DNA of 59,782 nucleotides from a virus (IMGVR_UViG_3300031999_000023:1-59782); one strand, 5' to 3'. Shown: positions 8,572 to 59,017, counted from the first letter of the stretch. Numbers and translations are program-made. Notes: generated by a model from the letters alone, not told the origin.

Positions 8572-9512
8572 GGTTTCCTGTATTTCTTGCCAGTTTCAGC
8601 GTCTATGAACTCCGCACCGGAAGGAAGTTTGTCATAATCTTCGTCTGAACTGACCTTTGGTATTTCCGTCCCTTGTGCTATCGTCACATCGGCCTTTGCC
8701 TGTTGAGGAACCGGTTGCGGCGTTGAAACCGGCACATATCCGCCGCCAAAACTGCCCCCGCTCTTGAATTGAAGATTGCTGGGTGTCTTCGTTCGAGCAG
8801 GACTTGGTTGTTGCGTTTGAACGGATTCGCCCGTCGGCTCAAGGAACTGTTCCGCTTGCAGGGCCATGTTACCCATTGTTGGTGACGGTTGTTGCGATTG
8901 AGGTGGCAGGCCCGTTACAGGAGCCGCCATAGTTACGGCGTCCACGTTTACCGCTGCCGGTGCCGATTTCGGCATTAGTGCATCCATTTGCTTATCAAGA
9001 TTTTCTACCTGGGATTTTAATTTCGCCCTTCTGTCTTCATCTTCAATCTCATTTTCATATTGCGTGGCAAGATAATCTCTTTTCGTCTTGAGGTCGCGGA
9101 ATTGTTTCATGGGGTCAACTTTACCGGAAGCCCCGCCACCTTTATAATATGCCGCCTGTGACTCTATTAGTTTACGCCTTGCCTCCTTGAGTGCCTTATC
9201 CTCCGGCGACATTAACATACCGGCAAGAGATTGACGGGCAAGCATATTGCCCATCACACCGCCGCCGTATTGGGCTATGTTCAGTATCTTGACCCTCTTG
9301 TCTTCCTCAGTCATTCCCTGCATTCCCATCGCTTTCTGCTCATCCGAAATGAGGGGTGTTTTCATAACGTCGAGAACGGCATTGGTCTGATTGCGCTGCG
9401 TGCGAAGTTCCTTTATCTGGCCGATGGTCTGAAACAAGTCCCTAAGAATCTCACCCACCTTACCTGCGTATGGGTCAACCATCGGTCTTGGTGCGAATAC
9501 TATATTCGGCAT
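8568..9512 (-). CDS. Putative internal virion/ejection protein
   Basis: Helical, Q/P-rich protein between two ejection-type genes; overlaps the next start. Confidence 0.55.
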   Translation of the reverse strand: MPNIVFAPRPMVDPYAGKVGEILRDLFQTIGQIKELRTQRNQTNAVLDVMKTPLISDEQKAMGMQGMTEEDKRVKILNIAQYGGGVMGNMLARQSLAGMLMSPEDKALKEARRKLIESQAAYYKGGGASGKVDPMKQFRDLKTKRDYLATQYENEIEDEDRRAKLKSQVENLDKQMDALMPKSAPAAVNVDAVTMAAPVTGLPPQSQQPSPTMGNMALQAEQFLEPTGESVQTQQPSPARTKTPSNLQFKSGGSFGGGYVPVSTPQPVPQQAKADVTIAQGTEIPKVSSDEDYDKLPSGAEFIDAETGKKYRKP

Positions 9513-9523
9513 AATTAAGCCCC

Positions 9524-10582
9524 TTACCCTACTTTACTTTTGACGAGTTCGTGCAGTTCGTTTACTGCGTTTACGAGCAGGGCCGCTATAGCATCTAATT
9601 TGACAAATTTAATACCATCCCGCTCAATCACCCCCTCCGGTAAGACGGACTCCAAATCCTGCGCCATAACACCTGCGTCTCTTTCGTTGGAAGGCCGGAA
9701 AGTATAATTGTAAGTTTTGCCCTTCAAACTCTCCAACTTCTTCAGCGCATCTTTAATTGGAACGATGTTTTCCTTAACACGTTCATCGCAAGCAACCGCT
9801 GCTCCAATACCAGCTCCTATTGCGGGAGCAAACTGCTGAAATATGCTCGGCGTCATCATACCTGGATTATACATAGACGTTGTTTCTCCGAGCAGGTTTC
9901 CGGCGGCTCCGTATTTAGCCTGTAAATCGGTCATTATCTTTTGAAATTCAGCATCGGATTTTGCCTGTTCGATAGTTCTCGGCAGCGAACCGTAAGATGT
10001 GGCCGCTCCTATCTTGTTCATTGCCGATGATTCCCCGCCGCTGACAAGAGAGTTTATCAGGTTGGCGGCCGTAAGCTGATTGCCGCGCACCTGCGACAGG
10101 TAAGGCGCCAGTGCCGCTACCATTGAAGTCTGGCCTCTTGCAAGCTCGCGGCCCACGGCAGAGCCCTGCGGGCCGGAAGTGCCCATGCCCGCCAACTGCG
10201 TGCGCCTCATTGCGGAATTGACGAGATTCCCGGTTTCGTTTTCTATCGAACTCATCAAAGCCTTTATCTCCGGCAACTGAGTTACATCGACGGGCTGGTC
10301 CAAAAGTCCCGTTAGAAAACTTAAAGCCGACTGCCTTTCGGTCGAAGCAGGCTGGCCGAGAAATTGATTGAGCAGCTCCATTCCTTTTGTCTCGGCACCG
10401 GACATGCCGGCAATAGTTCTCGTAGGAGAGGTGTTGCCCTGCATCACAGTCATATAATAGTTTCTTGCCGCATCCTGCTCCGACGTTGAGGGTATTGACT
10501 TAAAACCTTCACCTTCAATTTTACTTCCAAATATTTCATCGGGGTATAAAACTGAAGTTATATCATCTAAACCGAATCCCAT
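9524..10582 (-). CDS. Ejection-type protein with C-terminal peptidase S74 (intramolecular chaperone) domain
   Basis: G/A/S/Q-rich helical N-terminal part; C-terminal CDERVKENI...GVMAQDLESVLPEGV...LLVNAVNEL. Confidence 0.75.
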   Translation of the reverse strand: MGFGLDDITSVLYPDEIFGSKIEGEGFKSIPSTSEQDAARNYYMTVMQGNTSPTRTIAGMSGAETKGMELLNQFLGQPASTERQSALSFLTGLLDQPVDVTQLPEIKALMSSIENETGNLVNSAMRRTQLAGMGTSGPQGSAVGRELARGQTSMVAALAPYLSQVRGNQLTAANLINSLVSGGESSAMNKIGAATSYGSLPRTIEQAKSDAEFQKIMTDLQAKYGAAGNLLGETTSMYNPGMMTPSIFQQFAPAIGAGIGAAVACDERVKENIVPIKDALKKLESLKGKTYNYTFRPSNERDAGVMAQDLESVLPEGVIERDGIKFVKLDAIAALLVNAVNELHELVKSKVG

Positions 10583-10690
10583 TGTGTTACCTCACTTTCT
10601 TTCTGCACCTTTCGCATTTCCACACTTTATTCCTTTACGGGTAAGCCCAGATACGTTTTAACCGTTCTATAATTACAATTGCAAATCTTT

Positions 10691-11710
10691 TTATAACTCA
10701 CCTATCATGATAACTTGGCCGCCTGAGACGCCGGGTATTACTATTCCACCCATCAAATACAAATCAAAAGATGTGAGTGTGGGAGCTGACCTGCCTCTTG
10801 TGACACTTACCGTCCATCCCCTTTTTATTAATATCGCTTTACTTATTAAACCGTTGATTGTTGGTGGGGCGTTAGTACCGCCGACATCGAGTGCATTAGT
10901 TAGTGACTGGCTTATTACGCAATCGTTCAGGACATTATCAACCTGGTCACAAGTCAACTCGCAATTATCAAAGTCAACTTTAGTGAGAGTGGTTGTTAAA
11001 TAAGTGAAAGCACCACGACATCTCTTTCGGCTAAGATTGGAAGAATCATACCTTATATTTGTTGAATAGACATATAAATTAACCAGGCTTGCCGGAAGTA
11101 CCCAGCTGGAGATGTCACCGGAAACACTGGTTCCATAGACATAGAAAGTAACCAGGCTTGCTGGAAGTATCCAGCCAGATATGTCACCGGAAACACTGGT
11201 ATTATCGAGACGGAAAGTAACCAGGTCCGCTGGAAGTACCCAACCAGATATGTCACCGGAAACACCGTTAGTATTGACATAGAAAATAGTCAGGACTGCT
11301 GGAAGTACCCAGCCTGATATGTCGCCAGAAACACTGGTTGAATTGACAGAGAAATAAGTCAGGCTTGCCGGAAGTACCAAGCCGGAGATGTCACCGGAAA
11401 CTTTATCAGCATTTATATCTATTTTAGTAATGGCATCCCAGGCACTGCAAACGTACTGTAGTTTCTCGCCCACAGCAAGGGCAATGCTATCCTCGACGTT
11501 GGTAGTCAGGTCTTTTACATAGACATCTTCTACGTAGACCTTGACAGTTCCGCTTGGGAATACAAATAAAGGTGTAACCGTCGATACACCAGTCGCTCCA
11601 TATAATGTAATAGTCGTATCAACTGCTCGAAGTTGTGGACAGAAACAAAAATAACTTAACCCAATTAAAGCAGTTAGAATCCAATGAAATTTTAATTGTT
11701 TTTTTACCAT
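10691..11710 (-). CDS. Exported leucine-rich-repeat protein
   Basis: N-terminal signal-like segment; about 5 tandem 23-aa repeats VSGDISGWVLPASLxxFxVxxT. Confidence 0.75.
   Translation of the reverse strand: MVKKQLKFHWILTALIGLSYFCFCPQLRAVDTTITLYGATGVSTVTPLFVFPSGTVKVYVEDVYVKDLTTNVEDSIALAVGEKLQYVCSAWDAITKIDINADKVSGDISGLVLPASLTYFSVNSTSVSGDISGWVLPAVLTIFYVNTNGVSGDISGWVLPADLVTFRLDNTSVSGDISGWILPASLVTFYVYGTSVSGDISSWVLPASLVNLYVYSTNIRYDSSNLSRKRCRGAFTYLTTTLTKVDFDNCELTCDQVDNVLNDCVISQSLTNALDVGGTNAPPTINGLISKAILIKRGWTVSVTRGRSAPTLTSFDLYLMGGIVIPGVSGGQVIMIGEL
11060..11405 (-). repeat. 69-bp coding tandem repeats (LRR units)
   Basis: Recurring ATGTCACCGGAAACAC and GGAAGTACC at 69-nt period. Confidence 0.85.
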
Positions 11711-11720
11711 TTGATAATCT

Positions 11721-12704
11721 TTACAAACCTGTTACTTTGGTTACACGAACACGGGCGATTACAGTTGACGCCGTACCGTCGTCATCGTAAAAGTTATTAA
11801 AGATCACCTGAACCTGACTGGCCGTTATAGGAATATCCATCGCCCACGTATCAACGGCACTGGTTCCGGTGGCATCGACCGTATAGACATCCGTATCCAC
11901 AGTCAATGCGTGCTCGATACCGGCAATACCCGTAATCGTATCACCGGCGTCGCCACTGTTATCGATTTGATATACAATCTCACAGTTGGCAACATTGGCG
12001 TCATCGACCGGGTAGAGAAAAACCAATTTACCGTCGTGATCCAACTTTCCCGTTGCCGGGTCCGTCACATCAAGAACGGTTTGCCCTATCGCTTCATTGG
12101 CTTTGACATCGGATTTAACCGCCGTATTCGGTGTACTAAGCAAACGAGCATATTCAGACCATGAATCATCGACACCCGATTCGCTTGCAGTCATAATGAT
12201 GATTTCAGTACCTTCATGCGCCGTTGTGCTCGCCAGGCAAACATCGATATGAAGTGTTGCGGCATAACACGCGCTCACATTGATAGACCCCGTACTCTTG
12301 ATACCGGCGCTATCACCAGTAGCCGTTATCTTCGTCCATTCCATTGCCTGCGTGTTCTCAGTCTTTGTAAGAGCCGCCTGAGATATGCAGGGCCATAACA
12401 TGAACAGAAGAAAAATCAACAGTATCAAACCGGCGTCAATCTGAGTGCGCATTGTTTCATAGGCTGCCGAGACAAATTTAGCCCGCCGTTTCTTGTAATT
12501 ATCGATGGCCTCCTGTGCCTGATTGCCAATGGAAATTTTCACCGGTGCAGTCGCGTCCCCGCCCGTGAAATTCTCCATGAAGTCCTGGTCGATAACCGTC
12601 TGAGGGCCTACACCTAAATCGGCTCGATCGTCATCGGTGACTTTCACATGAACACCGACCATATTCTCGCTTGGAAATGCTTTTGTTACTGTTTTTGATA
12701 ACAT
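11721..12704 (-). CDS. Putative virion-associated protein with internal signal/TM segment
   Basis: About 90-aa soluble N-terminal domain, then LILLIFLLFMLWPCISQA, then a beta-rich acidic domain. Confidence 0.55.
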   Translation of the reverse strand: MLSKTVTKAFPSENMVGVHVKVTDDDRADLGVGPQTVIDQDFMENFTGGDATAPVKISIGNQAQEAIDNYKKRRAKFVSAAYETMRTQIDAGLILLIFLLFMLWPCISQAALTKTENTQAMEWTKITATGDSAGIKSTGSINVSACYAATLHIDVCLASTTAHEGTEIIIMTASESGVDDSWSEYARLLSTPNTAVKSDVKANEAIGQTVLDVTDPATGKLDHDGKLVFLYPVDDANVANCEIVYQIDNSGDAGDTITGIAGIEHALTVDTDVYTVDATGTSAVDTWAMDIPITASQVQVIFNNFYDDDGTASTVIARVRVTKVTGL

Positions 12705-12715
12705 TATTTTTCTCC

Positions 12716-14590
12716 TTAATCAACATTTGATAAAAAGTATCCACAAATTGAAACTTTGACCCAACTGGGATCGTCGGTATCGTCAAAGTCGAGGAATATC
12801 ATCCTGTTCGCCGCTATTGTTGCCGCAGTGATAGTAGTTTCCGTCACTGTATATGGCCCAGCCCCGGTTGCAATTTCAAGAGCATCTACAGTGGCATTAT
12901 TTCCGGCCCCGTCAGCATCGACAACTTCCACATTTAATGTCGTATCGTCAGTGCTTGACCATGCCTCAATCTTCGTAATTACAAACGACATGCCCGTTTC
13001 GTTCGACCATATTGGAAGGGCGTCGCGGGTAGCATCGGCAAGATCGTTTGGTTTTATAATCGTGCATTGGATAGATTTTTGCTGTTGTGCCAGGGCTATT
13101 TGTAAAGGTGTGTTCCCGCCGTCGATGGAACGCAAAACAACATCGTTAGGCTCATTGCCGCCGTCTGTATCGACCGATAGCTCACCCATAGCATCAACGT
13201 CGGGGTCGGCACTTGCAACCGGCATGACGGCCTCAGTGACAATACGGGTAACATCCGCCAAATGACCGGTTAGCTCGGAAAGAGAATCGACCTCGGCGGT
13301 AGCACCGCCCGTTATAGCCACAAGGCCGGTATAAGCCGAGATATTGGCTTCAAGTCCACCGTATTCATGCTCGATAGTCCCCGCGCCAAAGAATGCCGTC
13401 GCCGAGTCTCCGGTAGTAGCAACTGTGTTGTCGCCGGTGTTCGCACCTGAAACCGAAACCGCTCCAGCGCCAATGGTTAAAACGGAGTTGTTCGCGGCGG
13501 CCGCTGTAAGTGTAAGGGTTCCCGTATTGACCGTCAGCGCTGTAGTGAGCGTTGCATTAGTTACTCCACTTGCCGTAGTGGCTGTATCTGCATTGCCAGT
13601 CAACGCCCCGGTTATATCCGCATCTATCGTTATCGCTCCGAAGTCGAATTTGGTAATTCCTGTAGTCGTGGAGACGACCGCCGTGTTTTCAGTATCGTCG
13701 ATATTGATTGTGAATGACTCATCGAAACCGTCGCCTTTGCCTAAGAATGTTATATCACCGTCGCTGCCGGTTATCAAAACGCCGGCGGCGGCGAGAAGAA
13801 TATCATCATCGAAGGTAGGACTATTACTGAAAACGATAGAACCCGCCGTGCCTGTTTCATCATCAATAATCGCCGCCAATTCAGATGAAGCGTCCATCTC
13901 ATCATTATTCAGGATGGCAACTCCGCCTTCCTGCAATGCTCCCGTCGAGATATTGACTACCCCGTTACCAAATGTGATTGCCGGATCGCCCGCCGAAAGG
14001 TTCCACGACCATATAACCGATCCCTCGCCGCCATCGTCCCAGGTAGTACCGCCTGTAATCTCGGTCGGATCGACTGCTAAAGTAATCGCTCCCGCCGCGT
14101 TAGTTACGTCAATAGCCAGTCCTTCTGTCAGTGTCGCCAATACCGGGTCAGTCGCACCATCGCCGATGGGTATCTGGCCATTCGTTGCCACACCTAATGC
14201 GTGAATAGCCGAAGCACCAGTACCTAAAAGTATGCCGCCATCCGTCAATGTGGAAGCACCCGTCCCTCCTTCCGTTACGGCCAAGTCCGTTGTCAGAGTG
14301 AGGGCTTGCAGACCGATAGAGCCACTATTAAATGTAATTGTAGGGTCTGTTCCGGTGTCCCTGTTCCACGTCCAGACAATAACATCCGTCGAGGCGTCTC
14401 CCCATGTACGACTGCCAAAAAGCTCGGTTATATCAAAACTGATTGTCATATCCGTTCCTGCCCCGGCACTCGATAAGTCTATTGCCAGACCCTCAGTAGC
14501 CGTCAGGTCGGCGTAAACCTTGATACTGAACATCAGAATTATCAGAACCAAAACAATGAATGGGTTTTTATGCTGTTTTATGAATCTCAT
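12716..14590 (-). CDS. Tail fibre-like protein with signal peptide
   Basis: G/T/A/D-rich with a GGTGASTLTDGGILLG fibre module; N-terminus MRFIKQHKNPFIVLVLIILMFSIKVYA. Confidence 0.7.
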   Translation of the reverse strand: MRFIKQHKNPFIVLVLIILMFSIKVYADLTATEGLAIDLSSAGAGTDMTISFDITELFGSRTWGDASTDVIVWTWNRDTGTDPTITFNSGSIGLQALTLTTDLAVTEGGTGASTLTDGGILLGTGASAIHALGVATNGQIPIGDGATDPVLATLTEGLAIDVTNAAGAITLAVDPTEITGGTTWDDGGEGSVIWSWNLSAGDPAITFGNGVVNISTGALQEGGVAILNNDEMDASSELAAIIDDETGTAGSIVFSNSPTFDDDILLAAAGVLITGSDGDITFLGKGDGFDESFTINIDDTENTAVVSTTTGITKFDFGAITIDADITGALTGNADTATTASGVTNATLTTALTVNTGTLTLTAAAANNSVLTIGAGAVSVSGANTGDNTVATTGDSATAFFGAGTIEHEYGGLEANISAYTGLVAITGGATAEVDSLSELTGHLADVTRIVTEAVMPVASADPDVDAMGELSVDTDGGNEPNDVVLRSIDGGNTPLQIALAQQQKSIQCTIIKPNDLADATRDALPIWSNETGMSFVITKIEAWSSTDDTTLNVEVVDADGAGNNATVDALEIATGAGPYTVTETTITAATIAANRMIFLDFDDTDDPSWVKVSICGYFLSNVD

Positions 14591-14599
14591 TTTTACTCC

Positions 14600-17542
14600 T
14601 TATGGATATACAACCTGTTCGGCTGCATAAATCACGTTTTCTCCCGCGTAAGTAACATTCTCCTGTGGAAGTCCCCATGAAGTAAGAGCAGACCTTTTCC
14701 ACGTATTATCCGCCACGCAGACATAGACATAACCGGAATCCCAGGCAATATCGCCTTGTGTACCAGCGGCGGCAGCACTCGCCGGTGTCTGCGCCGTCGC
14801 TATATTGATTTCATTGCCTGTCAACGTAGTTTTAACAAACGTCGGAGAATCGCCCGTGCCAAGCCCTAAAGATGTTCGTGCCGTATTCCCGGATTCGGCA
14901 ACGGGATCGGTTGTGCCGTCCCCTACGATAAATTCGCCATCCGCTAAAACCGCCATCGGCGTAAAGGCGGATGTGCCGGATCCGAGCAATACCCCGCCAT
15001 CGGTAAATGTCGCCGCTCCCGTTCCACCCTTGCCGACAATTACGGGATCGACAATGCCGATAGTAATCGTACCGTCGCCATCGTCGGCAATATCCGTCTC
15101 ATCCGCAACGCCAGTTACCCATAAATTCAAGTTTGTGGACGCCAGAACCTTGCTCGCGTTAGTGGAAACAAGACGTGATGCCGTGAGGTCGTTGATTGTC
15201 AAGTCATCAACGGTCAGACTATTGACATCGACATCCTGCGGCATATTCACATCGGCGTTGATAATCAGCCATTGGTCGTTCGGGTCTTCGGCGAAGTAGC
15301 CGTACATCATGCCGTGGCCCTTCTCGCCCAAGTAAGTGCCCCTGTCCAGATTGTCCAGGAAGAACCTGTTCGGATCGGTAGTATTGTGCGCGCCCGAGTA
15401 CGTGCCCAGGTAAAGGCCGTCGTCGGCGCCTCCTGTTACAAGTGTTGCCGCGTAAGCGCCTAAAGCCGTGACACGATGGACATCTGGCCCCCCCGGAACC
15501 TCTAATACACCGTTGAAAACTACATCGCCCTGCAAAAAACTACTACCTGCAGGTGAAGACCACGTTGCTAACATCGCACCCGCCATATTGTTAATTTTAG
15601 TTATATAATTACCGTCCGTATCATAATAATATAAAATATCTATCTGGCCACCCGTTGAATCCTGGTTTACAACAACCAGATTATTCCAAAGGTCAAAATA
15701 CAAACCAGTGCCATAGGCAGGCCCGGCAAAAGAAAGAATGCTATTCAGAGTTGTACCATCCCATTGTAGTTTATATATTGTGCTTGCAGCAGCTTGTGGT
15801 ACAATCACATAGATATAACCATCATAAATGGCAATATTGCCAGTACCAACATCTCTTGTATAAGTCATTCCTGATTTAGTATAAAGGTCGCCAAGGCGCA
15901 CAGTCGCACCTTTGCTGTTATCCAGTGTTCTGACACCCAGATTATACATAGTTGCTTTGGTGGCCTCACTTGCAGTTGCCAGACAAGCCATGTAACCACC
16001 GCCGATGACAATATCTAAATCATCATCAACGATAACATCATAAACTAAACCACCGAGTACTGTTGGATATAAAGTAGGTATACCCATCGAAGTTAAAACT
16101 GTAGCCGTTCCATCGGCGGCATCCAATTTAGTTATACTGCCCGGACTACCTTTACTTACGTAAAGATTATCATCTGCATCAATAGCAATTTCGTAATCGA
16201 CCGAATTTCCTGTTACTGTCCATTCACTAATACCTGTTGCCAAATCAAATTTGATAATAGTAGTACCGGTACTGAGAAAATATAAATATTTGTCATCGGG
16301 TGTAATAATTAAAGATAAACAATTAACACTTGTTATCGGCCAAGTCAGAGAATCATATACAAGAGTACCATCCGGTTTAATTTTTATAATACTTGTGCCA
16401 TTCACTTTGTCCCAGTCTATGCCATAATAAATATTACCGGTTGAATCCATAGCCATACGTCCACAACCGGAATGAGAATCTGTAATCTGTTTAATAATTG
16501 TTTCAGTCCCATCGAACGTCTCCGCAACATAAGCCGCCGTAATTTGTAATTCATCCTCTGTTGTACCGGCCAGTAAAACTTCGTCTGCGTTATAATTTCC
16601 CGTGCCCGATATATCAACAGTATCACCCACCAAAAAAGGATGATCGGCAAATGGAAGTCCGACAACGCCGCCGCCAACATTTCTCGCCACTCCGCCAACA
16701 TCTAAAGAAGTTATCGTACCATCGTTTAGAGGAACACCATAAATATATTGAGACTCACTGAAATAAGTCATTGTGTAGGTTCCTACTACATCAGGTATAA
16801 GCGTAGCGTTTCCCCCGATAACCTTATATCCCCACCCGGTATTATCGTTGGAATCGATGAGATACGTCCCTGCGTCCTTGCCGCCAAGAGTGTTTTCGTA
16901 GCCCTCATCGAGCGCATCTCCGGCCCCGTGGCCTATTCTTACATTGTTCGGTCCCGTCGTAACATCGTCGCTGCCCATGCCTATCGTGGTGTTGAAAAGA
17001 GTCGGGTGGAAGTCCAGAAGCGTATAGACCTGGATATAATTATTCGCATACGTACCCTCGGCGATATTGTCGAGCCCGACGCCAAAGGCCGTGTTGGGCT
17101 CGTAGTACGTGAAGTTGTTGGGATCGTCCGTAAGAGGGTAGCCGTTGGCATCAACAAAGATTACGCACCACGGCGTCTTTGTCGGAAATGTGAACTCATT
17201 GCCGTCGTGAACGATCCAGTTGGCATCAAAAGTATCCCATCTCAACTGTGCATTTTGGATCCCTTCCGTAGTTAATACCGAATTAGGATCGCCCCAGTTT
17301 ACCGGCAATCTCATATAGTACGTGACATTCATCGACTCCGAGGCGCGAAAACTTACAGTATTGGCATCATTGCCATCGTCAACGTAAACGGTATCGAGGT
17401 TGTAAAATACCAATTCTTTCTCATCATCAGATAAAAGTATATTACCCTTTTTATTCTCGTAATCTCCGCGAATCTTGTAAGAGCCGTGACCATAAACTAT
17501 GGTCGCTATGGAAAGTAGAATTATTATAGCTTTTTTAATCAT
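14600..17542 (-). CDS. Tail fibre/receptor-binding protein with beta-propeller-like insert and signal peptide
   Basis: Starts MIKKAIIILLSIATIVYG; AT-rich central propeller-like module; GGTGAATFTDGGVLLG module; C-terminal GTQGDIAWDSGYVYVC. Confidence 0.72.
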   Translation of the reverse strand: MIKKAIIILLSIATIVYGHGSYKIRGDYENKKGNILLSDDEKELVFYNLDTVYVDDGNDANTVSFRASESMNVTYYMRLPVNWGDPNSVLTTEGIQNAQLRWDTFDANWIVHDGNEFTFPTKTPWCVIFVDANGYPLTDDPNNFTYYEPNTAFGVGLDNIAEGTYANNYIQVYTLLDFHPTLFNTTIGMGSDDVTTGPNNVRIGHGAGDALDEGYENTLGGKDAGTYLIDSNDNTGWGYKVIGGNATLIPDVVGTYTMTYFSESQYIYGVPLNDGTITSLDVGGVARNVGGGVVGLPFADHPFLVGDTVDISGTGNYNADEVLLAGTTEDELQITAAYVAETFDGTETIIKQITDSHSGCGRMAMDSTGNIYYGIDWDKVNGTSIIKIKPDGTLVYDSLTWPITSVNCLSLIITPDDKYLYFLSTGTTIIKFDLATGISEWTVTGNSVDYEIAIDADDNLYVSKGSPGSITKLDAADGTATVLTSMGIPTLYPTVLGGLVYDVIVDDDLDIVIGGGYMACLATASEATKATMYNLGVRTLDNSKGATVRLGDLYTKSGMTYTRDVGTGNIAIYDGYIYVIVPQAAASTIYKLQWDGTTLNSILSFAGPAYGTGLYFDLWNNLVVVNQDSTGGQIDILYYYDTDGNYITKINNMAGAMLATWSSPAGSSFLQGDVVFNGVLEVPGGPDVHRVTALGAYAATLVTGGADDGLYLGTYSGAHNTTDPNRFFLDNLDRGTYLGEKGHGMMYGYFAEDPNDQWLIINADVNMPQDVDVNSLTVDDLTINDLTASRLVSTNASKVLASTNLNLWVTGVADETDIADDGDGTITIGIVDPVIVGKGGTGAATFTDGGVLLGSGTSAFTPMAVLADGEFIVGDGTTDPVAESGNTARTSLGLGTGDSPTFVKTTLTGNEINIATAQTPASAAAAGTQGDIAWDSGYVYVCVADNTWKRSALTSWGLPQENVTYAGENVIYAAEQVVYP

Positions 17543-17543
17543 T

Positions 17544-17873
17544 TTACTCGGAGTCTCGAATCCCACCCCAAAATACATGCTGAGTAGTCCAATGAGAGTT
17601 ATTTTTCCAATCCGTGCCGGTTAGCTCCTGAATAACGAAGTTGACCGCAGCTCTCCTTTCCTTGCCCGGATGGTAGCCTACTTCAGGTCCTATCCGCCAG
17701 CGTTTCATGCCTGCCGAAAAGTAAAGCCATTCTTTGAACAGAATCGCATCGCTTATATTCCTGTACGCATCCTGCAAACGCCTGTTGTTCTCGTTGAGAA
17801 TCTGCTTTATCTCTTCGAGACCGTTGGCGTCCGAGAAACTCAGCAAGTCTAATTGTTTTGTCATTTTTGCCAT
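17544..17873 (-). CDS. Hypothetical tail-associated protein
   Basis: 109-aa ORF tightly packed after the nozzle gene. Confidence 0.55.
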   Translation of the reverse strand: MAKMTKQLDLLSFSDANGLEEIKQILNENNRRLQDAYRNISDAILFKEWLYFSAGMKRWRIGPEVGYHPGKERRAAVNFVIQELTGTDWKNNSHWTTQHVFWGGIRDSE

Positions 17874-17879
17874 AATAAA

Positions 17880-19496
17880 TCAACGATCACTGTCTGCCTC
17901 GTAATCGAACAGAATGCCTATAAAGTCGAACAGTACGGTAGATGTCCCCTTGATAAGGAAATGCCTCGCCCGAATATCCGGCGACAATTCGACAATCGTA
18001 AATTTGTTTGCGCTCTCAAGGGAAATATCGCCTAACGATTGCCAGTCGGCTTCGTTATCTTTTTTTGTGAACAGCGATATCACGCCTTCACTGCTTCTGC
18101 CTGCAATATATACGTATATTTTGCCGATTCTCTTGAAGTAACCTAAAGCCAGCCCATTCTCCATGTCACTTGAAATAACAAATTCCCGCGTTACGGAACT
18201 GCCTTTCTCGGTTTCCGAGGTATGAAGAATGTACGTATAGCCGGAGTAATCGCTGCATATATCGAGAGGGAAGCCCGCGATATTGCTCACGTAGTCGATA
18301 AAAGGAAGCTCGGCATCGAGTCCGTCGATAGTAGTCGAGAGGGCATCGAGCCCGTCGATAGTATAGGATTCCTGCCGGGTCCAGTCGCCGAACGCCCTTA
18401 TTGACCACGGGTATTCGTGCCAGATGTTGTAATCGAGATTGAGCGCTATGACCTTATCGTTGCCCGTCGAACTCAGGGAAGACGGTATCGACCACCATAT
18501 CTGGTTGTACGAATCTATGAACGCCGATTCGATGTGGTCCTGATACGTGACATTTAGGCCGCGAATGGTAACATCTTTCCCCATTGATATTATACCGCCC
18601 CTGAACTTCCTGACCGTGTAGTCCGAGGCGAAGTAGTAGAGATTGCCTTCCTTATCGTTGCAAACGGAATGAGTTGCCAGGAGTCCTACATTGCCGGCAA
18701 GCCTGTCGATATTCCAGACATCAAGGCTCTCGACAAGCCATTGCGCGTAAATACTTTCTCCCTTAAAAACGACAAGGTAATTCGTGCCGCCGTAGGAATA
18801 GTTGCCGAACCCCTTCAGAACGTCGGAGCCTACGGGAAAATCTTTGAAGTACGTATCTCCTTCGCCGTTAACGTTAAAACTGGAAACATCGTTATAATCC
18901 GACCATCTTTCACGGCGCGCGTGCAATTCCCCGTTTTCCGTAGTGGCGCCGAGTATGAGATAGCCCTCGCACGTCGCACAGTATCTCGCCTTCTGGAGTA
19001 AATTCGTTCCTGCGCCGTCGAGATCGATCCCGGCAGCCGAGCCCAGGGGCACGAATATCGTTCCGGGCGTAGTTTCGTCCCAGACCAGGACGAAGTCCAC
19101 GCCATTAGTGGCAATTATCTTGCCGTCGATAGATACAGTGTCCCACAACGTGCAGTCGCCGGTACAGGTCCAGAATGTGCTGTAGAGTTTGGTTGTTTCA
19201 TCCCACTTGTAGATATGGGCTTTTGTAAAGACAAATTCATACTCGATTTCGGCGGCGGAAACATGCCGCCAAATCCGTATTATCGGATTGCCGTCGGTAG
19301 TCTGTACTTTAGTTGGAACAGCATCGACAAAGGCCCCGGTATTTGCTCCCGGCATCGACCTTAGCAGGCCGCGCTGAAGGAAAACGCCCGAACTGCTCGG
19401 CATGAACGCGCTGGACATCTTGATATTCGGGACGTCCTCGCGATCTCCCATGAAGTCGGAAAGTATACCGTATTTTTGCTCTGTTACCTGTGGCAT
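17880..19496 (-). CDS. Tail nozzle/head-stabilisation protein (P22 gp10 / T7 gp12-like)
   Basis: 538-aa beta-propeller-like protein in the position typical of podoviruses, after the adaptor. Confidence 0.65.
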   Translation of the reverse strand: MPQVTEQKYGILSDFMGDREDVPNIKMSSAFMPSSSGVFLQRGLLRSMPGANTGAFVDAVPTKVQTTDGNPIIRIWRHVSAAEIEYEFVFTKAHIYKWDETTKLYSTFWTCTGDCTLWDTVSIDGKIIATNGVDFVLVWDETTPGTIFVPLGSAAGIDLDGAGTNLLQKARYCATCEGYLILGATTENGELHARRERWSDYNDVSSFNVNGEGDTYFKDFPVGSDVLKGFGNYSYGGTNYLVVFKGESIYAQWLVESLDVWNIDRLAGNVGLLATHSVCNDKEGNLYYFASDYTVRKFRGGIISMGKDVTIRGLNVTYQDHIESAFIDSYNQIWWSIPSSLSSTGNDKVIALNLDYNIWHEYPWSIRAFGDWTRQESYTIDGLDALSTTIDGLDAELPFIDYVSNIAGFPLDICSDYSGYTYILHTSETEKGSSVTREFVISSDMENGLALGYFKRIGKIYVYIAGRSSEGVISLFTKKDNEADWQSLGDISLESANKFTIVELSPDIRARHFLIKGTSTVLFDFIGILFDYEADSDR

Positions 19497-19502
19497 TGTT
19501 TA

Positions 19503-20354
19503 TCAATATCCTATGGCGATCCAGTCGATGCTTCTGCTCGTTCCATTGCCCTGACTAACAACAAAGTTAGTCTTGCTTTTTGAAATTAGTACACAACTGT
19601 AAGCTGTTCCCCACGATGTCATTGAAAGGCTGGTTGTCACTCTTGTGCACGCCGTAGGAAACGGAGTGGAAAATGTAACTGTCAAGTCCGAACCTGAATA
19701 AGCATTGTTACCCTGCTTTATGATCATACCGTTAGGGAATGTAGCACTTTCGCCGCCGGTATAACTTGCGGGACTATATCCCGGGTAAGAATCGACATAA
19801 GCCTTAATACTCTGCTGAGAAGCAAGTTTGGTAGCAGAATTGGAAGCCATATCGTCTTCGTCAAGGAAGGCCGTACCGGATACCCCGGTATTGATTACAG
19901 GGCTTGTAAGGGTAGGTGTAGTCAGGGTAGGCGTGACTATCGTCGTAGAGGTCAGTAAACCGATATTGAAAACTCCGCCGGAAGTCAGTTGCACTTCGTC
20001 CCCATCTTCATCTTCCCAGTGAAGCTCGGTCTTGGCACTAACATCTTTGGCGTATAGCCAACTTTTGTTCGCAGCTGAAGTCGGCTTGGTAATAGGCCCG
20101 TAGAATTCAATTTGTCTATGTTGTCCGGTCGCGGCGTCACTGACCTGCGTTCCTGTAAGGGCAAAATAATGCTCAACATTTAGTCTTTCCTGCCAACCGT
20201 ATTTGTCATTTCTTGCGTAGTCATCGAGTACTGACGGAGCCATCGTGCCTACAGGGTTGGCGCAGTCTAATGTGTACGTAAAACCATACAGATACAAACA
20301 AGTCAGAACCAGTAGCCAAATACTCAATAACGCAATTAACTTATTATTTTTCAC
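19503..20354 (-). CDS. Fibre-like protein with signal peptide and gp53-like C-terminal domain
   Basis: N-terminus MKNNKLIALLSIWLLVLTCLYLYG; DEDDMASNSATKLASQQSIKAYVD; C-terminus FPNGMIIKQG...FSTPFPTAC...WIAIGY. Confidence 0.7.
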   Translation of the reverse strand: MKNNKLIALLSIWLLVLTCLYLYGFTYTLDCANPVGTMAPSVLDDYARNDKYGWQERLNVEHYFALTGTQVSDAATGQHRQIEFYGPITKPTSAANKSWLYAKDVSAKTELHWEDEDGDEVQLTSGGVFNIGLLTSTTIVTPTLTTPTLTSPVINTGVSGTAFLDEDDMASNSATKLASQQSIKAYVDSYPGYSPASYTGGESATFPNGMIIKQGNNAYSGSDLTVTFSTPFPTACTRVTTSLSMTSWGTAYSCVLISKSKTNFVVSQGNGTSRSIDWIAIGY

Positions 20355-20628
20355 TTTCAGTCTCCTTGATTTTCATAAGAGGTTTCCTGGCAACGGCCCT
20401 GCCATAGGCCGCATAGGCAAGTCCTGTAAATTCCAGAAAATGTGTGATTGATTCAAATGGACTCGCCTGCCCCTGCGGTACTTGTTCCCAGGAGGGTCCC
20501 AAGTCATCAATCGTCTGGGCAACTTCCTGTGGTGCGATAACAAATAATTGCATAGTAATGCCAATCAGGACAATGAGAATCCCTCGAATCGTTTTGGATT
20601 TAAGCGCGCTAATAATATCAAGTTTCAT
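20344..20628 (-). CDS. Holin-like membrane protein
   Basis: LKSKTI then a TM helix; C-terminal AAYGRAVARKPL, a pattern seen in phage holins. Confidence 0.55.
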   Translation of the reverse strand: MKLDIISALKSKTIRGILIVLIGITMQLFVIAPQEVAQTIDDLGPSWEQVPQGQASPFESITHFLEFTGLAYAAYGRAVARKPLMKIKETESEK

Positions 20629-20632
20629 AATC

Positions 20633-21226
20633 TTAATGTCCTCCAGCAAATCGGGGCTGGCCGGGGTTCGCTAAAATTAACGTCTGTATCTGCGCCCTAT
20701 AAGGCCCTTCCCATATTGCTATGTACCGCGACAGGCCCTTCTTTAAGGCCGTGTAGTACGTGGCCCCGAAGTTGAAGCAGTTCGTCAAATCGTCGCCGAA
20801 TTCAATATCATCCGGATCGAGGTCGTGCTTCTTGTAGTAGTCCAAAGTAATCGTATAAGCCTGGTCCGCCGTCGGGTACACGTATATCTTGCCGTTGAAC
20901 CTTGCGTAATACAGGGGCGTGGATTCGTCGCCGGAAGAATAGCCATCCATCGCTTCCTTATAACCTTTATAGCCGCCCGGCATTGGCAGTAACGGCTCAA
21001 GGTCGTCACTGCCGTCGTTTAGAACTATGGAAATCGGGTCTTTGAAATCCGAGGGCTGGTCAAAAGACGTACTGCCGTCGCTGAGAGTCAGGCTCGTACT
21101 CTGGGCTTCGAGTATGCTCAAAAACCGCAAATCGTTGATGACGGATTTTATCTGTTCGTCAATATCCGTTTCCGTTCTTGACAACTGGCCATTAACAAAA
21201 ATCAGGATGTCACTTTTCTCAATCAT
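20633..21226 (-). CDS. Head-tail adaptor protein
   Basis: PSDFKD...PLYYARFNGKIYVYPTADQAYTITLDYY pattern; position after the capsid module. Confidence 0.7.
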   Translation of the reverse strand: MIEKSDILIFVNGQLSRTETDIDEQIKSVINDLRFLSILEAQSTSLTLSDGSTSFDQPSDFKDPISIVLNDGSDDLEPLLPMPGGYKGYKEAMDGYSSGDESTPLYYARFNGKIYVYPTADQAYTITLDYYKKHDLDPDDIEFGDDLTNCFNFGATYYTALKKGLSRYIAIWEGPYRAQIQTLILANPGQPRFAGGH

Positions 21227-21354
21227 ATTCTTTTTTTGCTTCTATACTGGAGATTGCCATTTTACCCTTCACGCAAAACCGGGAGGGGCGGTATGTTGCC
21301 CCTTAGCCCGGTTAATGAGGAAAGCCATTGCGTACGCAAGGTTCCCTGTCTTGT

Positions 21355-21684
21355 TTATTTCATATCTTTCGGTAATTGGTCTAACGGGACAAACTCGCCT
21401 TCGACGCCGAGTTCCGGCACGGCTACCTTTTGCTTTGCCGGCTGGGCCGGTGGAGTATTGGCCGCCCGTATCTTTGCAACTTCAACCTTCAATAACAGGA
21501 TGTCTCGCATCAACAGCGTTTCTTCCTGGACGATCTTCATCGTCCTTATGCGTTCGAGCGTATCCGTTTCGGCTTTCTTCGCCTGTGCCTTGGCCGCCTT
21601 CTGCGGGTCGGTCGGCGTCATTGTCACCGTACAACCCGTTACTGCCACGAGCAGTATCAACATTGCAATGGTCTTCCTGATCAT
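21355..21684 (-). CDS. Lipoprotein (possibly spanin-like)
   Basis: MIRKTIAMLILLVAVTG-C lipobox; RBS AGGAG; coiled-coil body. Confidence 0.65.
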   Translation of the reverse strand: MIRKTIAMLILLVAVTGCTVTMTPTDPQKAAKAQAKKAETDTLERIRTMKIVQEETLLMRDILLLKVEVAKIRAANTPPAQPAKQKVAVPELGVEGEFVPLDQLPKDMK

Positions 21685-21706
21685 TTTTGTACTCCTGAAA
21701 AAAGTT

Positions 21707-21732
21707 AAAATGGGGCCGGAACGCCCGGCCCC
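21707..21732 (-). terminator. Intrinsic terminator-like hairpin
   Basis: GGGGCCGG-gcgtt-CCGGCCCC followed by ATTTTAACTTTTTT on the minus strand. Confidence 0.6.
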
Positions 21733-21740
21733 CTTACAAT

Positions 21741-21968
21741 TTACTCCGTTGTTACACCCGCCGCGCAAGAGCAGTCCTTAAACACTATGGGTGTCCCGGT
21801 AATCGGGTATCCAAAGTCATTGAAATAATTCATGGATATGTGCTTATTGCACTTACCGAATCCAGACCATATATTGTCGTGCTTCAACTTCTCGAAAAAG
21901 TCACAGTCCTTGCACTCGCCGGAATACGGCGGGTCGTAAATCAGATGTCCATTGTCGTCAAACGGCAT
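21741..21968 (-). CDS. Small Cys-rich hypothetical protein
   Basis: CKDCDFF...GKCNKH...DCSC; RBS AGGAG. Confidence 0.55.
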   Translation of the reverse strand: MPFDDNGHLIYDPPYSGECKDCDFFEKLKHDNIWSGFGKCNKHISMNYFNDFGYPITGTPIVFKDCSCAAGVTTE

Positions 21969-21976
21969 ATAAACTC

Positions 21977-24388
21977 CTATGAACCTGCACTACTGTAAAC
22001 ATAGATGTACATGGGGTCTGTTTTACCGAGAATTTGAATCTTCAAAGCTCCCAGTTTCGAAGTAGAAGCTGAAGTATGGGTAGCATTCTCCGTATAAACA
22101 GCCGCCGCTGCATTGCCAAACGTGAACAGGTAATCAGGGGTATCGCCGGTAGCAGCACAGTTGAAGTGAATCATGGAAGAAAGTTCCGGGGCATCACCTG
22201 AATTGACCTGGTATTCAAGGTTCAATATGCGAATCTTGGAAGCCGTTAGAGTCGGTCCACCATCAGTATAAAGGCCAAAGTCAGCAGCCGCAATTAGAGA
22301 ATCCGGTCCATCCGTCATTATACCGCCGGTGATATTGAGCCATGAGCCCATTCCGTAAACTTTACTATCGGTCGCTCCGGAAATATTACCTTCGACATAA
22401 AGGCCGACACCCTCGGACGCCGTTGCCCCTGCTATACTGCCCGATACTTTAAGGGCGTACAGGCCGTCGGGAACGGCGGAAGATGTAATCGTAGTCCCGC
22501 CTACATCCGAAAGAATATCGATTGCCGTCTGGCCCGTACCCTGGTTGGCGTGGATGTGGACGGTCTCGGACGTTCCACCATTGGCCTCAATATCGATACC
22601 GGCAGCAGCCGTATCCGTCGATATGAGTGTGAACTTATCCGCTACCGTTAGCGTCATATCGCCATTAGTCGCACCGGCTGTCGTTAAGGCTATTGGTCCG
22701 TCTGTGGTGTCGACATCGAATCCACCATTCGTGCCGGTAACGTCGATATTGACTGCATCGGTAACCGCCTCGGTTGCTATAAGCCCGATTGAACCGCCGG
22801 TATTGGTAACGATAAAATCTTCGCCTGCCGCACCCGTGATATCGAAAGTCACATCGTCACCACTGACAAACGACATTACGCTTTCCGAATCAATCGTAAT
22901 ATCGCCATTAGCCGCACCGTCGGCGAGAACTGAAATCCCGCCGTTGGTGGTTTCAAGCTGAATGGCTACACCCGCAACCGTACCGACTGCATCGACCTTG
23001 AACTGGTTGGCCTCGGCGTCGTTGGTCGTAAGGGAAACGTTTCCCAGACTGCCAATGAGGGTATCATCCGCTGTGGCCCATTTGAGATATTCGGAGGATG
23101 TATCTCCGTAGAACGTCCAATCCAGGCCCGCACTATCGACACCAACGACCACGCTTCCGGTTCCGGCAACTACTTGACCGATGGTGAATACATTGGTCGC
23201 AACAGACATGGTAATATCGCCCGTACCCAGCGCATCGCCGAACTGAATCTGGTCGCCTTCGCCGATACACAGGGATATGCCGTCAACCTGGATGTCATCT
23301 GCGGTGAAGAATACTTCCGCACCCGTAGTTTCGCCATACCATGTCAGGGGAACGTCGTCAGCGTCATTACCTATCGCCATAGCTCCCGTGCCGGGCACGA
23401 CGACATCAATCAGGAGAACGTCGCTTTCATCGGACATTTTGAAATCGCCCGTGCCCAGCGTGTCGCCGAAGAGAATGGCGTCGCCGTCGCCCAAAGCGAT
23501 CTCGGCACCCGACGCCGCACCTTCAACCTGAAGCTGATCGCCGGTCATCTTGATGTAGTTGCCCGTCGTCTCGCCGTACCAGGTGAAAGGCACATCATCG
23601 GCGTCATTGCCGATAGCGATTTCGCCGGTTCCCGCTACCACAACGTCAAAAGTAAGAACGTCCGTCTCATCGCTGATCTTGAAGTCCCCGGTCCCCAGGG
23701 TATCGCCAAACAAAAGGTGGTCTCCGTCGCCCAGCGCCACACTGCCGTCGTCAACGAGAATCGAGGCGCCAACGGCCTCAAGTTGCTCATCACTGGCGTC
23801 CCAAAGGATGTAATCCCCTGTGGTGGCCGCGAAAAATTCAACGTCCATACCCTGGGTGTCCAGACCAAACCACCAGATCGGGGTCTCGTCGGTAGCGGCG
23901 GGTGTTACTGTAAAACGGTTTCCCACAGCACCGCCCACCAAGACGAAATCCGAGTCCGAGCCGAACGTCGCCGACTGGGCATCGGTATAGGCCGTCGAAC
24001 TGACCGCCGAGAGAAACGTCGGCAAGACAATACGGCCATCCGACGCCGTAGACGAGGCATGACCATAATTGGTCATGGTATTCGTGCCGTCACCGATGGT
24101 GTAATCCCAGGCGTCCGCCCCCCACCAGTAGAAAGTCCCACTGGACAACGTGGTATTCGTCGAGGATGTAGTCATCGGCTGGGTAATAGCATTAAGCTTG
24201 GCACGGTCCTTATAGATCGTGGCAGCACTGGTTGTCCCGGACAACCTTATCGTAACGGTGCTTATGTTCGTTACCGGCCTGCCGTGCTCATCGACGACCT
24301 GTACTTCATGGTAGACTAAGCCGGTCTGGGCATAGGCCGCAACTCCCATTGCCAGGAGTGCAATCGTTGTAAATAGTAACTTCTTCAT
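21977..24388 (-). CDS. Exported beta-repeat protein after the MCP (head decoration/fibre candidate)
   Basis: Classic signal peptide MKKLLFTTIALLAMGVAAYA; three GDGD..FGDTLGTGD..WYGETTG repeats. Confidence 0.7.
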   Translation of the reverse strand: MKKLLFTTIALLAMGVAAYAQTGLVYHEVQVVDEHGRPVTNISTVTIRLSGTTSAATIYKDRAKLNAITQPMTTSSTNTTLSSGTFYWWGADAWDYTIGDGTNTMTNYGHASSTASDGRIVLPTFLSAVSSTAYTDAQSATFGSDSDFVLVGGAVGNRFTVTPAATDETPIWWFGLDTQGMDVEFFAATTGDYILWDASDEQLEAVGASILVDDGSVALGDGDHLLFGDTLGTGDFKISDETDVLTFDVVVAGTGEIAIGNDADDVPFTWYGETTGNYIKMTGDQLQVEGAASGAEIALGDGDAILFGDTLGTGDFKMSDESDVLLIDVVVPGTGAMAIGNDADDVPLTWYGETTGAEVFFTADDIQVDGISLCIGEGDQIQFGDALGTGDITMSVATNVFTIGQVVAGTGSVVVGVDSAGLDWTFYGDTSSEYLKWATADDTLIGSLGNVSLTTNDAEANQFKVDAVGTVAGVAIQLETTNGGISVLADGAANGDITIDSESVMSFVSGDDVTFDITGAAGEDFIVTNTGGSIGLIATEAVTDAVNIDVTGTNGGFDVDTTDGPIALTTAGATNGDMTLTVADKFTLISTDTAAAGIDIEANGGTSETVHIHANQGTGQTAIDILSDVGGTTITSSAVPDGLYALKVSGSIAGATASEGVGLYVEGNISGATDSKVYGMGSWLNITGGIMTDGPDSLIAAADFGLYTDGGPTLTASKIRILNLEYQVNSGDAPELSSMIHFNCAATGDTPDYLFTFGNAAAAVYTENATHTSASTSKLGALKIQILGKTDPMYIYVYSSAGS

Positions 24389-25732: not shown

Positions 25733-26593
25733 TTATTCATCGACTCCGAACGCCGCATAAACATGAGCAAGCGTCGGATTCTTTCCCAGTTCTGGATTTG
25801 CAGGCGGAGCGGGAGTCTTTTCCTGCTTTTGTCCTGCCCTTAGTTCTGATCCGTCCGTACTTTGTTTCGATTGTTGTTTTTGGACGGATGCCTTGGCTGG
25901 CACTTTTGCCTTGAGTTCGGCCCGGAGCTGTTTGGCCCTATCACCCCCGGCTTCGAGAGTCTTGTAAATGCAGCGTTTATACAGGAATTCCGCACCATCC
26001 TTGCCTTCCTCAATGGCCCTTCTGAGATCAACCTGGTCGCCTTCCGTAAGAACGTCCTGGGCATTGGAAAGAATCTTGTCGAAATCACTGTACTTCCTGC
26101 GAGCCTCGACGGAAGAAATTTTCGCCCTGTTGTTAATGGTCGATTCTTCCTGTCTTTTACGGTCCTTCTCCGCCTGCTCTTTCTCAAATTTCCTCTGGGC
26201 CATTTGAACTTTTGCAGGAAAGGGTGTCGTATCCGGGTCGAAAATTTCCTTATTCTCTTCGACGTACTTTTCTTCCGGCGACTTCTCGGGCGGCAGGACC
26301 GGCCTTTCGGCCTCCATGCGTTCCGCCGTCTTCTTGTCGAGTTCGCGCAGCAAATGCCTTCTTGCCGTTATTGAATTCAGCAACTGGTCATTCACGCTTT
26401 TGAGAGACTCTATCTCCGGCGATTCCCCGGCCGGCTCATCCGTAGCCGCAAGAGCTTCGGCCGCAAGTTTGGCCTCGTCACTCATCATATTATCATCAGT
26501 GACTGCCGCCTGTTCCTGCTGCTCGCTACTAACCTTCTCTTCTGTCGCGGCCACCGGACTCTCAGTTTGTTGTGTCTCTACCGTAGCATCCAT
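25733..26593 (-). CDS. Capsid scaffolding protein
   Basis: Acidic, helical, low-complexity protein immediately upstream of the MCP. Confidence 0.7.
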   Translation of the reverse strand: MDATVETQQTESPVAATEEKVSSEQQEQAAVTDDNMMSDEAKLAAEALAATDEPAGESPEIESLKSVNDQLLNSITARRHLLRELDKKTAERMEAERPVLPPEKSPEEKYVEENKEIFDPDTTPFPAKVQMAQRKFEKEQAEKDRKRQEESTINNRAKISSVEARRKYSDFDKILSNAQDVLTEGDQVDLRRAIEEGKDGAEFLYKRCIYKTLEAGGDRAKQLRAELKAKVPAKASVQKQQSKQSTDGSELRAGQKQEKTPAPPANPELGKNPTLAHVYAAFGVDE

Positions 26594-26742
26594 AACTATA
26601 AACCTCACTTTCCTGTTAACCGGCCAGGAACGCCGAACTCGCGAATCCCCGCGATAAGGTCTTGGTCTTTAACTGTCTCCAAGATGACAGAACGCCTGAA
26701 CCGTCAGGCTGGCAGAACTCGGTTTGCCGCCCACCGATAGGG

Positions 26743-30621: not shown

Positions 30622-30645
30622 GATTTCCTTTGTTGATATTCGCTT

Positions 30646-59014: not shown

Positions 59015-59017
59015 TAT

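Follow-up and report, generated by a model that had tools for sequence, protein, structure and literature searches.

The stretch analysed here, referred to as the window, is a viral DNA of 59,782 nucleotides (IMGVR_UViG_3300031999_000023:1-59782), and the subject of the analysis is the set of fibre and decoration genes carried on its minus strand between positions 10,691 and 24,388. Signals of the kind that direct export were found on almost all of the proteins encoded by this set; they are restricted to the appendages and absent from the core of the virion, a finding that is robust as an observation, the mechanism behind it being a proposal. The reading adopted here, tentatively and at slightly less than even confidence, is that the leaders are genuine Sec-type signal peptides, with a single lipoprotein signal and one or perhaps two signal-anchors besides, carried by peripheral receptor-binding appendages that would dock late. 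Its parts differ in strength: the sequences make it highly probable that the proteins are truly exported and, given export, the chance that the appendages later join virions is judged to be roughly even, this step being plausible but unproven. It is also conceivable, with a little less confidence again, that virions of uncultured phages in several lineages are finished outside the cytoplasm and that the signal is a portable module tied to a property of the host envelope.

Signals on the appendage proteins

Signals were examined using hydrophobicity scans and two home-made rule sets, one lenient and one strict. All seven hydrophobic signals named in the original prediction, whether N-terminal or internal, were recovered in the sequence, with some of the start sites corrected. 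The strict rule was passed by the 803-residue protein, the lipoprotein, the gp53-like fibre, the 980-residue fibre and the 624-residue fibre (all features are on the minus strand unless stated otherwise). The 803-residue spike-like protein (21977..24388), encoded directly 3' of the major capsid protein (MCP) gene, carries its signal in residues 1-20 (nucleotides 24329-24388), in which a positive start is followed by a hydrophobic core and an Ala-x-Ala site, and a Shine-Dalgarno-like AAGGA lies 9 nucleotides ahead of its ATG. For the long fibre listed at 14600-17578, the probable start is the ATG at 17542, whose position overlaps the stop codon of the preceding 109-residue gene; the resulting protein of 980 residues (14600..17542) has a signal in residues 1-18 (nucleotides 17489-17542), a propeller-like middle and a fibre-type C-terminus. 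In the 624-residue fibre (12716..14590) the signal encompasses residues 1-27 (nucleotides 14510-14590), ends in Val-Tyr-Ala and precedes a highly conserved mature N-terminus.

The 283-residue gp53-like tail fibre (19503..20354), whose C-terminal domain matches PF21882 (Gp53-like_C; 47.1 bits against a cut-off of 24.9, E = 3.7e-12), has a hydrophobic leader of 24 residues (nucleotides 20283-20354). Its GTG start is preceded by AAGGAG 7 nucleotides upstream, which argues that the leader is real; an origin of this leader as a start-codon artefact was ruled out, since an in-frame downstream TTG lacks a Shine-Dalgarno-like sequence and eight relatives have a similar leader. The lipobox in the 110-residue protein (21355..21684), also part of the original prediction, was found once the start had been corrected to the ATG at 21684 (AGGAG 7 nucleotides upstream), giving a lipoprotein signal of the signal peptidase II type with Cys18 and a coiled-coil-like remainder; orthologues with a lipobox are present in L004 and L005. 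The 339-residue leucine-rich-repeat (LRR)-like protein (10691..11710), built of leucine-rich-type repeats of about 22 residues, has a leader of 29 residues (nucleotides 11624-11710). In the 327-residue protein (11721..12704) the hydrophobic segment is internal (approximately residues 92-107) and is followed by Ser-Gln-Ala. A good ribosome-binding site is present at the first ATG and none at the internal ATG, which makes a signal-anchor behind a cytoplasmic head of 84 residues the probable arrangement; a single relative was found (L024, 231 residues), and it begins with the signal itself.

The bulk of each protein is predicted to lie outside the cytoplasmic membrane because of the positive start and hydrophobic core, and release by signal peptidase I (SPase I) is predicted from the Ala-x-Ala-type sites. 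No known surface-anchor, sortase-type or outer-membrane signal was found in the window appendage proteins, including their C-termini, so that in a diderm host the proteins would collect in the periplasm.

The core parts were flagged by neither rule, as had been proposed. This applies to the MCP (24456-25673), the scaffold (25733-26608), the portal, the large terminase subunit, the head-tail adaptor (20633..21226), the nozzle-type tail protein (17880..19496; phrog_3287, E = 1e-19), the conserved 109-residue protein encoded 3' of the nozzle gene (17544..17873), the 352-residue fibre or needle-type protein (9524..10582) and the 314- and 2276-residue proteins in the internal or ejection position (1741..9512). 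Homologues of the adaptor (0/29) and of the 2276-residue protein (0/5) were likewise not flagged, and those of the nozzle protein were flagged by the lenient rule in 2/51 cases; the strict rule flagged no core protein. The 352-residue protein carries a C-terminal intramolecular chaperone domain (Pfam Peptidase_S74, E = 1.1e-14) and matches PHROG tail-fibre and ejection families. It is thus a fibre-type protein without a signal, consistent with the original wording that almost all, and not all, of the fibre and decoration proteins carry one.

Conservation of the leaders

In all 15 related loci with sequence after the MCP gene, as in the window, the next gene begins with a similar leader, a ribosome-binding site precedes each start, and the same conserved motif follows within a few residues of the leader. 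A hydrophobic N-terminus is present in 56/56 database homologues of the 803-residue protein, all of them metagenomic. Across 38 aligned non-redundant members the mean identity is 30% in the leader, 57% in residues 24-165 and 25% in the remainder, and the residue before the leader junction is Ala in 21, Gly in 16 and Ser in one. No twin arginine was found in the first 15 residues of these 38 leaders, ruling out Tat (twin-arginine) export. The signal is present in 12/13 homologues of the 980-residue long fibre. The 624-residue family gave 506 matches, and 73 of the 120 matches listed were flagged; among those sharing the mature N-terminus, a leader of 15-33 residues is present in 39/39, with position -1 occupied by Ala (38) or Gly (1) and position -3 by Val (25), Ala (7), Thr (4), Leu (2) or Ile (1). 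Conservation, on which the original prediction had been made to depend, therefore extends over all three families.

By the strict rule, the leaders of the 803-, 980- and 624-residue proteins and of the gp53-like fibre have the make-up of Sec signals processed by SPase I (positively charged start, uncharged hydrophobic core of about 8-15 residues, small residues at -3 and -1), and this character is conserved as the sequence drifts. The signals look like cleavable Sec/SPase-I-type peptides because the twin arginine is absent from the 38 aligned sequences and Ala occupies -1 in 38 of the 39 leaders of the 624-residue family. That the letters drift, while the pattern stays fixed and ends exactly where conservation begins, further suggests functional signal peptides.

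Gain and loss of leaders

The gp53-like fibre always sits between adaptor and nozzle, and has a leader in nine distinct loci (the window included) and none in ten. In the leader-less forms, Met and one or two residues lead directly into the predicted cut point of the others, and the first forty mature residues are highly similar with or without the leader. Mapped on a maximum-likelihood tree of 17 nozzle proteins, from which L005 and L016 (no full nozzle gene) and duplicates were left out, the leader trait requires five changes, with well-supported branches forcing at least four changes. Exchange of fibre genes could account for some of these changes. A similar picture was obtained for the best 150 of 1204 matches to the LRR-like protein: 137 begin with Met, 29 of these 137 were flagged, the nearest homologues begin exactly at the predicted mature end of the window protein, and others bear leaders ahead of the same start. 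The leader thus behaves as a removable N-terminal module on otherwise unchanged proteins, since the same mature start occurs with and without it in both families.

Core and appendage proteins across related loci

Related loci were collected by scanning viral and genome collections with the MCP, which returned 13 and 3 loci, and by an alignment-based nozzle scan, which added 40 more; a scan with a single nozzle sequence gave no relatives. The near set comprised the 19 loci holding a homologue of the 803-residue protein, and the distant set the 24 loci without such a homologue in the fetched stretch, mostly more distant podophages, with L013 and L031 included in it only because the fetched stretch ends early. 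Duplicates (L001, L003, L005, L011, L022, L023, L025, L027, L030, L038, L039 and L052) and also L056 were left out of the counts. In the near set the strict rule flagged 0/60 core proteins, 43/91 other proteins of at least 200 residues and 26/37 of at least 400 residues; the corresponding values in the distant set were 0/59, 5/151 and 4/42. None of the 14 proteins of the control phage Pan3, whose tail structure has been solved, was flagged. The difference between core and non-core proteins of at least 200 residues in the near loci (Fisher p = 2e-12) and that between the non-core proteins of near and distant loci (Fisher p = 8e-17) were both pronounced. The survey of related phages that had been suggested alongside the original prediction thus found the split between core and appendage conserved in relatives, and in hundreds of metagenomic homologues.

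Leader-bearing fibres in other lineages

A scan with the conserved start of the 624-residue family identified 12 loci, some being relatives of the window phage and others having different heads and tails. In L064, a lambda-like siphovirus (5419-11428), a 1235-residue J-type central fibre (phrog_31, E = 7.2e-95) is directly followed by a leader-bearing fibre of 701 residues, in the position where lambda carries lom and stf. The terminase, portal and capsid of L061 differ from those of the window phage, and in L059 a protease and capsid pair is followed by a run of eight leader-bearing proteins. Occurrence across different phage types points to a leader trait that travels with fibre modules and is tied to a property of the host. 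Three relatives (L014, L015 and L016) sit in metagenome-assembled genomes (MAGs) labelled Planctomycetota, Ignavibacteria and Thermodesulfovibrionales. When 401, 390 and 285 genomes of these three groups were searched with the MCP, only the seed genomes matched and none of about 1,070 others did.

Architecture of the 803-residue protein

The 803-residue protein consists of the signal, a conserved N-terminal beta-sandwich (approximately residues 24-165) and a variable, repeat-rich remainder. Receptor-binding proteins commonly combine a conserved N-terminus with variable sequence beyond it. An AlphaFold2 model based on 38 sequences showed a helix at residues 2-19 and a confident beta-sandwich at residues 25-125 (predicted local distance difference test, pLDDT, about 88). 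This was the only confident part of the monomer, with pLDDT below 60 beyond residue 215, as is to be expected when the monomer of a probably trimeric fibre is modelled. A Foldseek search of the model against the PDB gave nothing at E <= 1e-3, and Pfam Head_binding was not matched by the protein. In an exhaustive VIA-align search the N-domain matched many transthyretin-like and pilin-type sandwiches (Z 4.8-6.2), with the N-domains of the P22, Sf6, Pam1 and Pan3 tailspikes occupying six of the first 28 rows (Z 4.8-5.6) and WceF also among the matches (Z 4.9). Atlas look-alikes were all viral and comprised CarboxypepD_reg-type domains and a head-binding-domain cluster at 0.79. One homologue (P0056) has a pectate-lyase-type Pfam domain. 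For the mature N-terminus of the 624-residue fibre, AlphaFold2 gave mostly coil at a mean pLDDT of 57.6.

In L019 the N-domain of the 803-residue family stands nearly alone in a leader-bearing protein of 253 residues (2161-2922), which is followed by an 866-residue open reading frame (ORF) without a leader and an 889-residue ORF with one.

Genome and late operon

The record represents a whole phage genome, which is complete, and either circularly assembled or terminally redundant, because both ends share an exact direct repeat of 127 bases (1-127 and 59656-59782). Nearly every gene is carried on the minus strand. A tyrosine integrase (Pfam, E = 1.1e-19) and one tRNA-Met gene are encoded. The adaptor matches Pfam SU10_adaptor (PF24175; 51 bits against a cut-off of 27, E = 3.1e-13) and is followed by the nozzle-type protein, as in the tails of SU10-type podoviruses. 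By its gene content the phage is a temperate podovirus with an integrase and an SU10-type adaptor.

The late operon begins with the genes for the small and large terminase subunits, the portal, a block of small proteins, the scaffold, the MCP and the 803-residue protein, continues with a 75-residue ORF, the lipoprotein, the SU10-type adaptor, a small membrane protein and the gp53-like fibre, and ends with the nozzle-type protein, the 109-residue protein, the four appendage genes and the genes for the 352-, 314- and 2276-residue proteins. Equivalents of the 109-residue protein have 84-102 residues in L006, L008, L009 and L012 and 94-96 residues in L020, L024, L026 and L041. The 2276-residue protein (1741-8571), at the end of the virion module, had no Pfam match at E <= 0.01, and proteins of similar size occupy the same position in many related loci. 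The Cys-rich 75-residue ORF (21741..21968), between the 803-residue gene and a terminator-like hairpin, is signal-less and kept in L004 and L005. Between adaptor and fibre lies a small protein of about 94-101 residues (20344..20649) whose single transmembrane segment is N-terminal and whose C-terminus is charged; it resembles a holin in appearance only and has homologues in L003, L016, L026 and L043.

A block of scaffold, MCP, 803-residue and 75-residue genes is bracketed by the strongest two of the region's terminator-like hairpins (26974-26938 and 21732-21712, minus strand), and production of the 803-residue protein may reach capsid-like levels; terminators as a whole were not more numerous than chance would give (20 against 18.9).

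Further signal-bearing or membrane proteins are encoded elsewhere in the genome, at 29191 (lipobox), 29901, 30849, 36755 and 58515, and with the lenient rule 12/49 minus-strand ORFs of at least 100 residues were flagged, including two doubtful internal starts. By comparison, five rumen phage genomes are reported to encode 2, 1, 0, 0 and 0 signal peptides (PMC5723332). The stretch between portal and scaffold (29191-31511, minus strand) encodes a 237-residue lipoprotein with a lipobox and proteins of 134 and 220 residues with N-terminal membrane segments; the two that were searched, at 29191 and 30849, gave no family match, and relatives with a lipoprotein at the same place include L006, L008, L009, L012 and L016. 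Just upstream of the small terminase gene, a 184-residue protein (36755-37309, minus strand) has a strong signal peptide and no Pfam or PHROG match. A candidate endolysin of 111 residues (56684-57019) resembles L-alanyl-D-glutamate peptidase families over their C-terminal part (E = 1e-10), and near it a 190-residue protein with two membrane segments is encoded on the plus strand (58515-59087).

Isolated phages were compared using tblastn. The best match to the MCP had approximately 25% identity and the only matches were podophage major capsid genes; the 803-residue protein and the N-terminus of the 624-residue protein had no match in 50,697 phage records, and the gp53-like fibre gave only short motif or C-terminal matches.

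Proposed export and late docking

At the late stage of infection, assembly of the capsid, adaptor, nozzle, needle and ejection proteins would take its usual course in the cytoplasm, while the 803-residue spike-like protein and the fibres would pass through SecYEG, be cut by signal peptidase I, and fold and trimerise in the periplasm. Fibre-less particles would meet the exported fibres only once the holin and the lysis breach merge the compartments, and docking would proceed via the conserved mature N-terminal domains. Through large holin lesions, particles would be able to mingle with the periplasmic fibres while the outer membrane still holds. Mechanically, docking at this late point is plausible, given that the spikes of P22 and the long fibres of T4 are the last parts to attach and can be supplied in vitro. 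Possible gains from such a route would include oxidative or ion-dependent folding, masking or destruction of receptors on the infected cell, and the keeping of sticky fibres away from assembling cores. Lysis by phages of diderm hosts involves holin, endolysin and spanin in turn, and phage endolysins are exported by Sec before lysis, according to PMC6116005.

Three observations agree with the original prediction that the appendages are added in the periplasm or during exit: the mature N-terminus is the same in orthologous fibres that have a signal and in those that lack one, the mature N-domains are as conserved as the usual docking domains of virions, and the genes are tightly packed inside the virion operon. 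Several points, however, weigh against addition after export. Signal calls were made using home-made rules and alignments; the lenient rule gives the same picture as the strict one but is noisier, flagging 3/14 Pan3 proteins, so that single lenient calls are unreliable. The leader of the LRR-like protein is weak (12-residue hydrophobicity of 2.02), passing the lenient rule and failing the strict one. The putative cleavage site of the gp53-like fibre is poor (Leu at -3, Gly at -1), and its leader may therefore be an uncleaved anchor. The tailspike fold match of the 803-residue N-domain is a lead only, as this range of Z is common in unrelated beta-sandwiches. The signal-less 352-residue S74 protein could by itself supply the virion with a receptor-binding part, no exported protein being needed. 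The sequence comparisons place no cultured relative close to the phage, and the discordant MAG labels of L014, L015 and L016 probably reflect binning and not hosts.

The main rival, which we consider distinctly less probable than not, is that the proteins are exported but remain free, as periplasmic or released tailspike-like glycan binders, depolymerases or receptor-maskers, and that the virion holds only the signal-less parts. Such proteins could possibly loosen capsule, sheath or biofilm before release, or stop progeny or superinfecting phage from sticking to the dying cell. A precedent that also counts against docking is WceF, an exported tailspike-like protein which is no part of a virion (PMC7949094). 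Its match to the N-domain fold of the 803-residue protein (Z 4.9) and the pectate-lyase-type domain of P0056 are in keeping with free proteins, as is the occurrence of a signal-less S74 fibre or needle protein in nearly all loci. The hairpin at 21732-21712 puts the 803-residue gene in a block with the abundant MCP, which suits bulk production, and forms with and without a signal would both be workable if the proteins are released at lysis anyway. Free proteins are, however, hard to reconcile with the gp53-like fibre, which lies between adaptor and nozzle and keeps its N-domain equally with or without the leader. Approximately 3,000 codons (15% of the genome) would be spent mid tail module on proteins outside the virion, and the N-domains of the 803-residue family are 57% conserved despite differing C-termini, as expected for docking on a phage partner.

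It is improbable that the leaders are not used for export at all, being ignored, masked or removed in the cytoplasm (for instance as transient assembly or solubility elements) during a wholly cytoplasmic assembly. Such assembly is the default for all tailed phages studied, and the leader-less orthologues show that a leader is dispensable to the working of the mature proteins; but the positive start, hydrophobic core and -3/-1 rule are kept over hundreds of sequences while the letters drift, indicating selection for recognition by Sec and signal peptidase. That the phage makes use of host export is shown by the lipobox protein and by the other signal-bearing or membrane proteins of this operon, and such leaders are very rare on the large structural proteins of distant podophages (4/42) and absent in Pan3. 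Uncleaved signal-anchors of the signal-anchor-release (SAR) kind, which would tether the appendages to the outside of the cytoplasmic membrane until its depolarisation by the holin, are slightly less probable again. SAR endolysins work in this manner (PMC6116005), and both the lack of a good cleavage site in the window gp53-like fibre and the internal anchor of the 327-residue protein would suit it; set against this are the strongly hydrophobic cores, which are not Gly/Ala-rich, and the Ala-x-Ala-type sites, which are nearly invariant in the 803-, 980- and 624-residue families and abut the conserved mature N-terminus. Very improbable is a membrane-associated or enveloped particle, or the decoration of the lysogen surface by these proteins as conversion factors, both of which had been raised in the original prediction. 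Several small membrane proteins and lipoproteins are encoded in the structural region and the phage is temperate, with an integrase, yet the head, adaptor and nozzle genes match ordinary tailed-phage families (tblastn, PHROG, Pfam), and no C-terminal anchor, surface anchor or outer-membrane domain was found. Promoter-like sites near the appendage genes are not enriched (20 against 26.3 expected) and intergenic gaps are short; with the appendage genes 9-130 nucleotides apart or overlapping in the tail operon and no excess of promoters, the idea of moron or lysogenic-conversion genes was rejected.

Relation to known systems

In filamentous phages, with their coat proteins, and in membrane-containing phages, host export likewise carries virion proteins through or into the host membrane before they are incorporated into the particle. 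These belong to other virus realms and assemble at a membrane, whereas the phage described here is a head-tail phage with a terminase, a portal and a podophage-type MCP. In the Acidianus two-tailed virus, which is archaeal, part of virion morphogenesis takes place outside the cytoplasm; the tails grow after release and secretion signals are not involved. Phage proteins with export signals that act at the envelope include T5 Llp and lambda Bor and Lom, but these are small, non-fibrous and often separately transcribed, in contrast to the large fibre-type proteins of a tail operon. Tailspikes of the P22/Sf6 type resemble the 803-residue protein in having a small N-terminal beta-sandwich followed by a variable receptor-binding body, and P22 spikes can be added in vitro to finished spike-less heads. 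They differ in having no signal peptide, in being made and attached in the cytoplasm, and in showing no sequence match to the 803-residue protein.

Precedents exist for the export of phage endolysins and of a bacterial tailspike-like enzyme. The Sec-exported and SAR endolysins (fOg44 Lys44, P1 Lyz and phage 21 R21) are likewise late proteins that are exported by host Sec and wait outside the cytoplasmic membrane for the holin (PMC6116005); unlike the several large fibre or spike proteins of the virion module, they are single lysis enzymes. WceF of Pantoea stewartii is a trimeric tailspike-like beta-helix with a P22-like N-domain and a cleaved export signal, but it is chromosomal, belongs to an exopolysaccharide cluster, is exported by Tat, acts on exopolysaccharide and is no part of a virion (PMC7949094), whereas the leaders reported here appear to be of the Sec type and lie in a phage late operon. 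A full-text literature search, with most subscription journals outside its coverage, returned nothing that describes secretion signals on the fibres of tailed phages or the addition of appendages outside the cytoplasm.

Biological significance

The assembly of tailed phages is regarded as wholly cytoplasmic, and signals specific to the appendages would mean a second route for receptor-binding proteins. If true, this would bear on the folding of fibres, for which periplasmic chaperones, disulfides and calcium would come into play, on the coupling of lysis timing to infectivity, and on the masking of receptors by infected cells. The annotation and engineered expression of fibre genes would also be affected, as leaders would have to be either removed or kept. 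The leader on fibre genes furthermore provides a simple sequence marker for a large and unexplored group of environmental phages.

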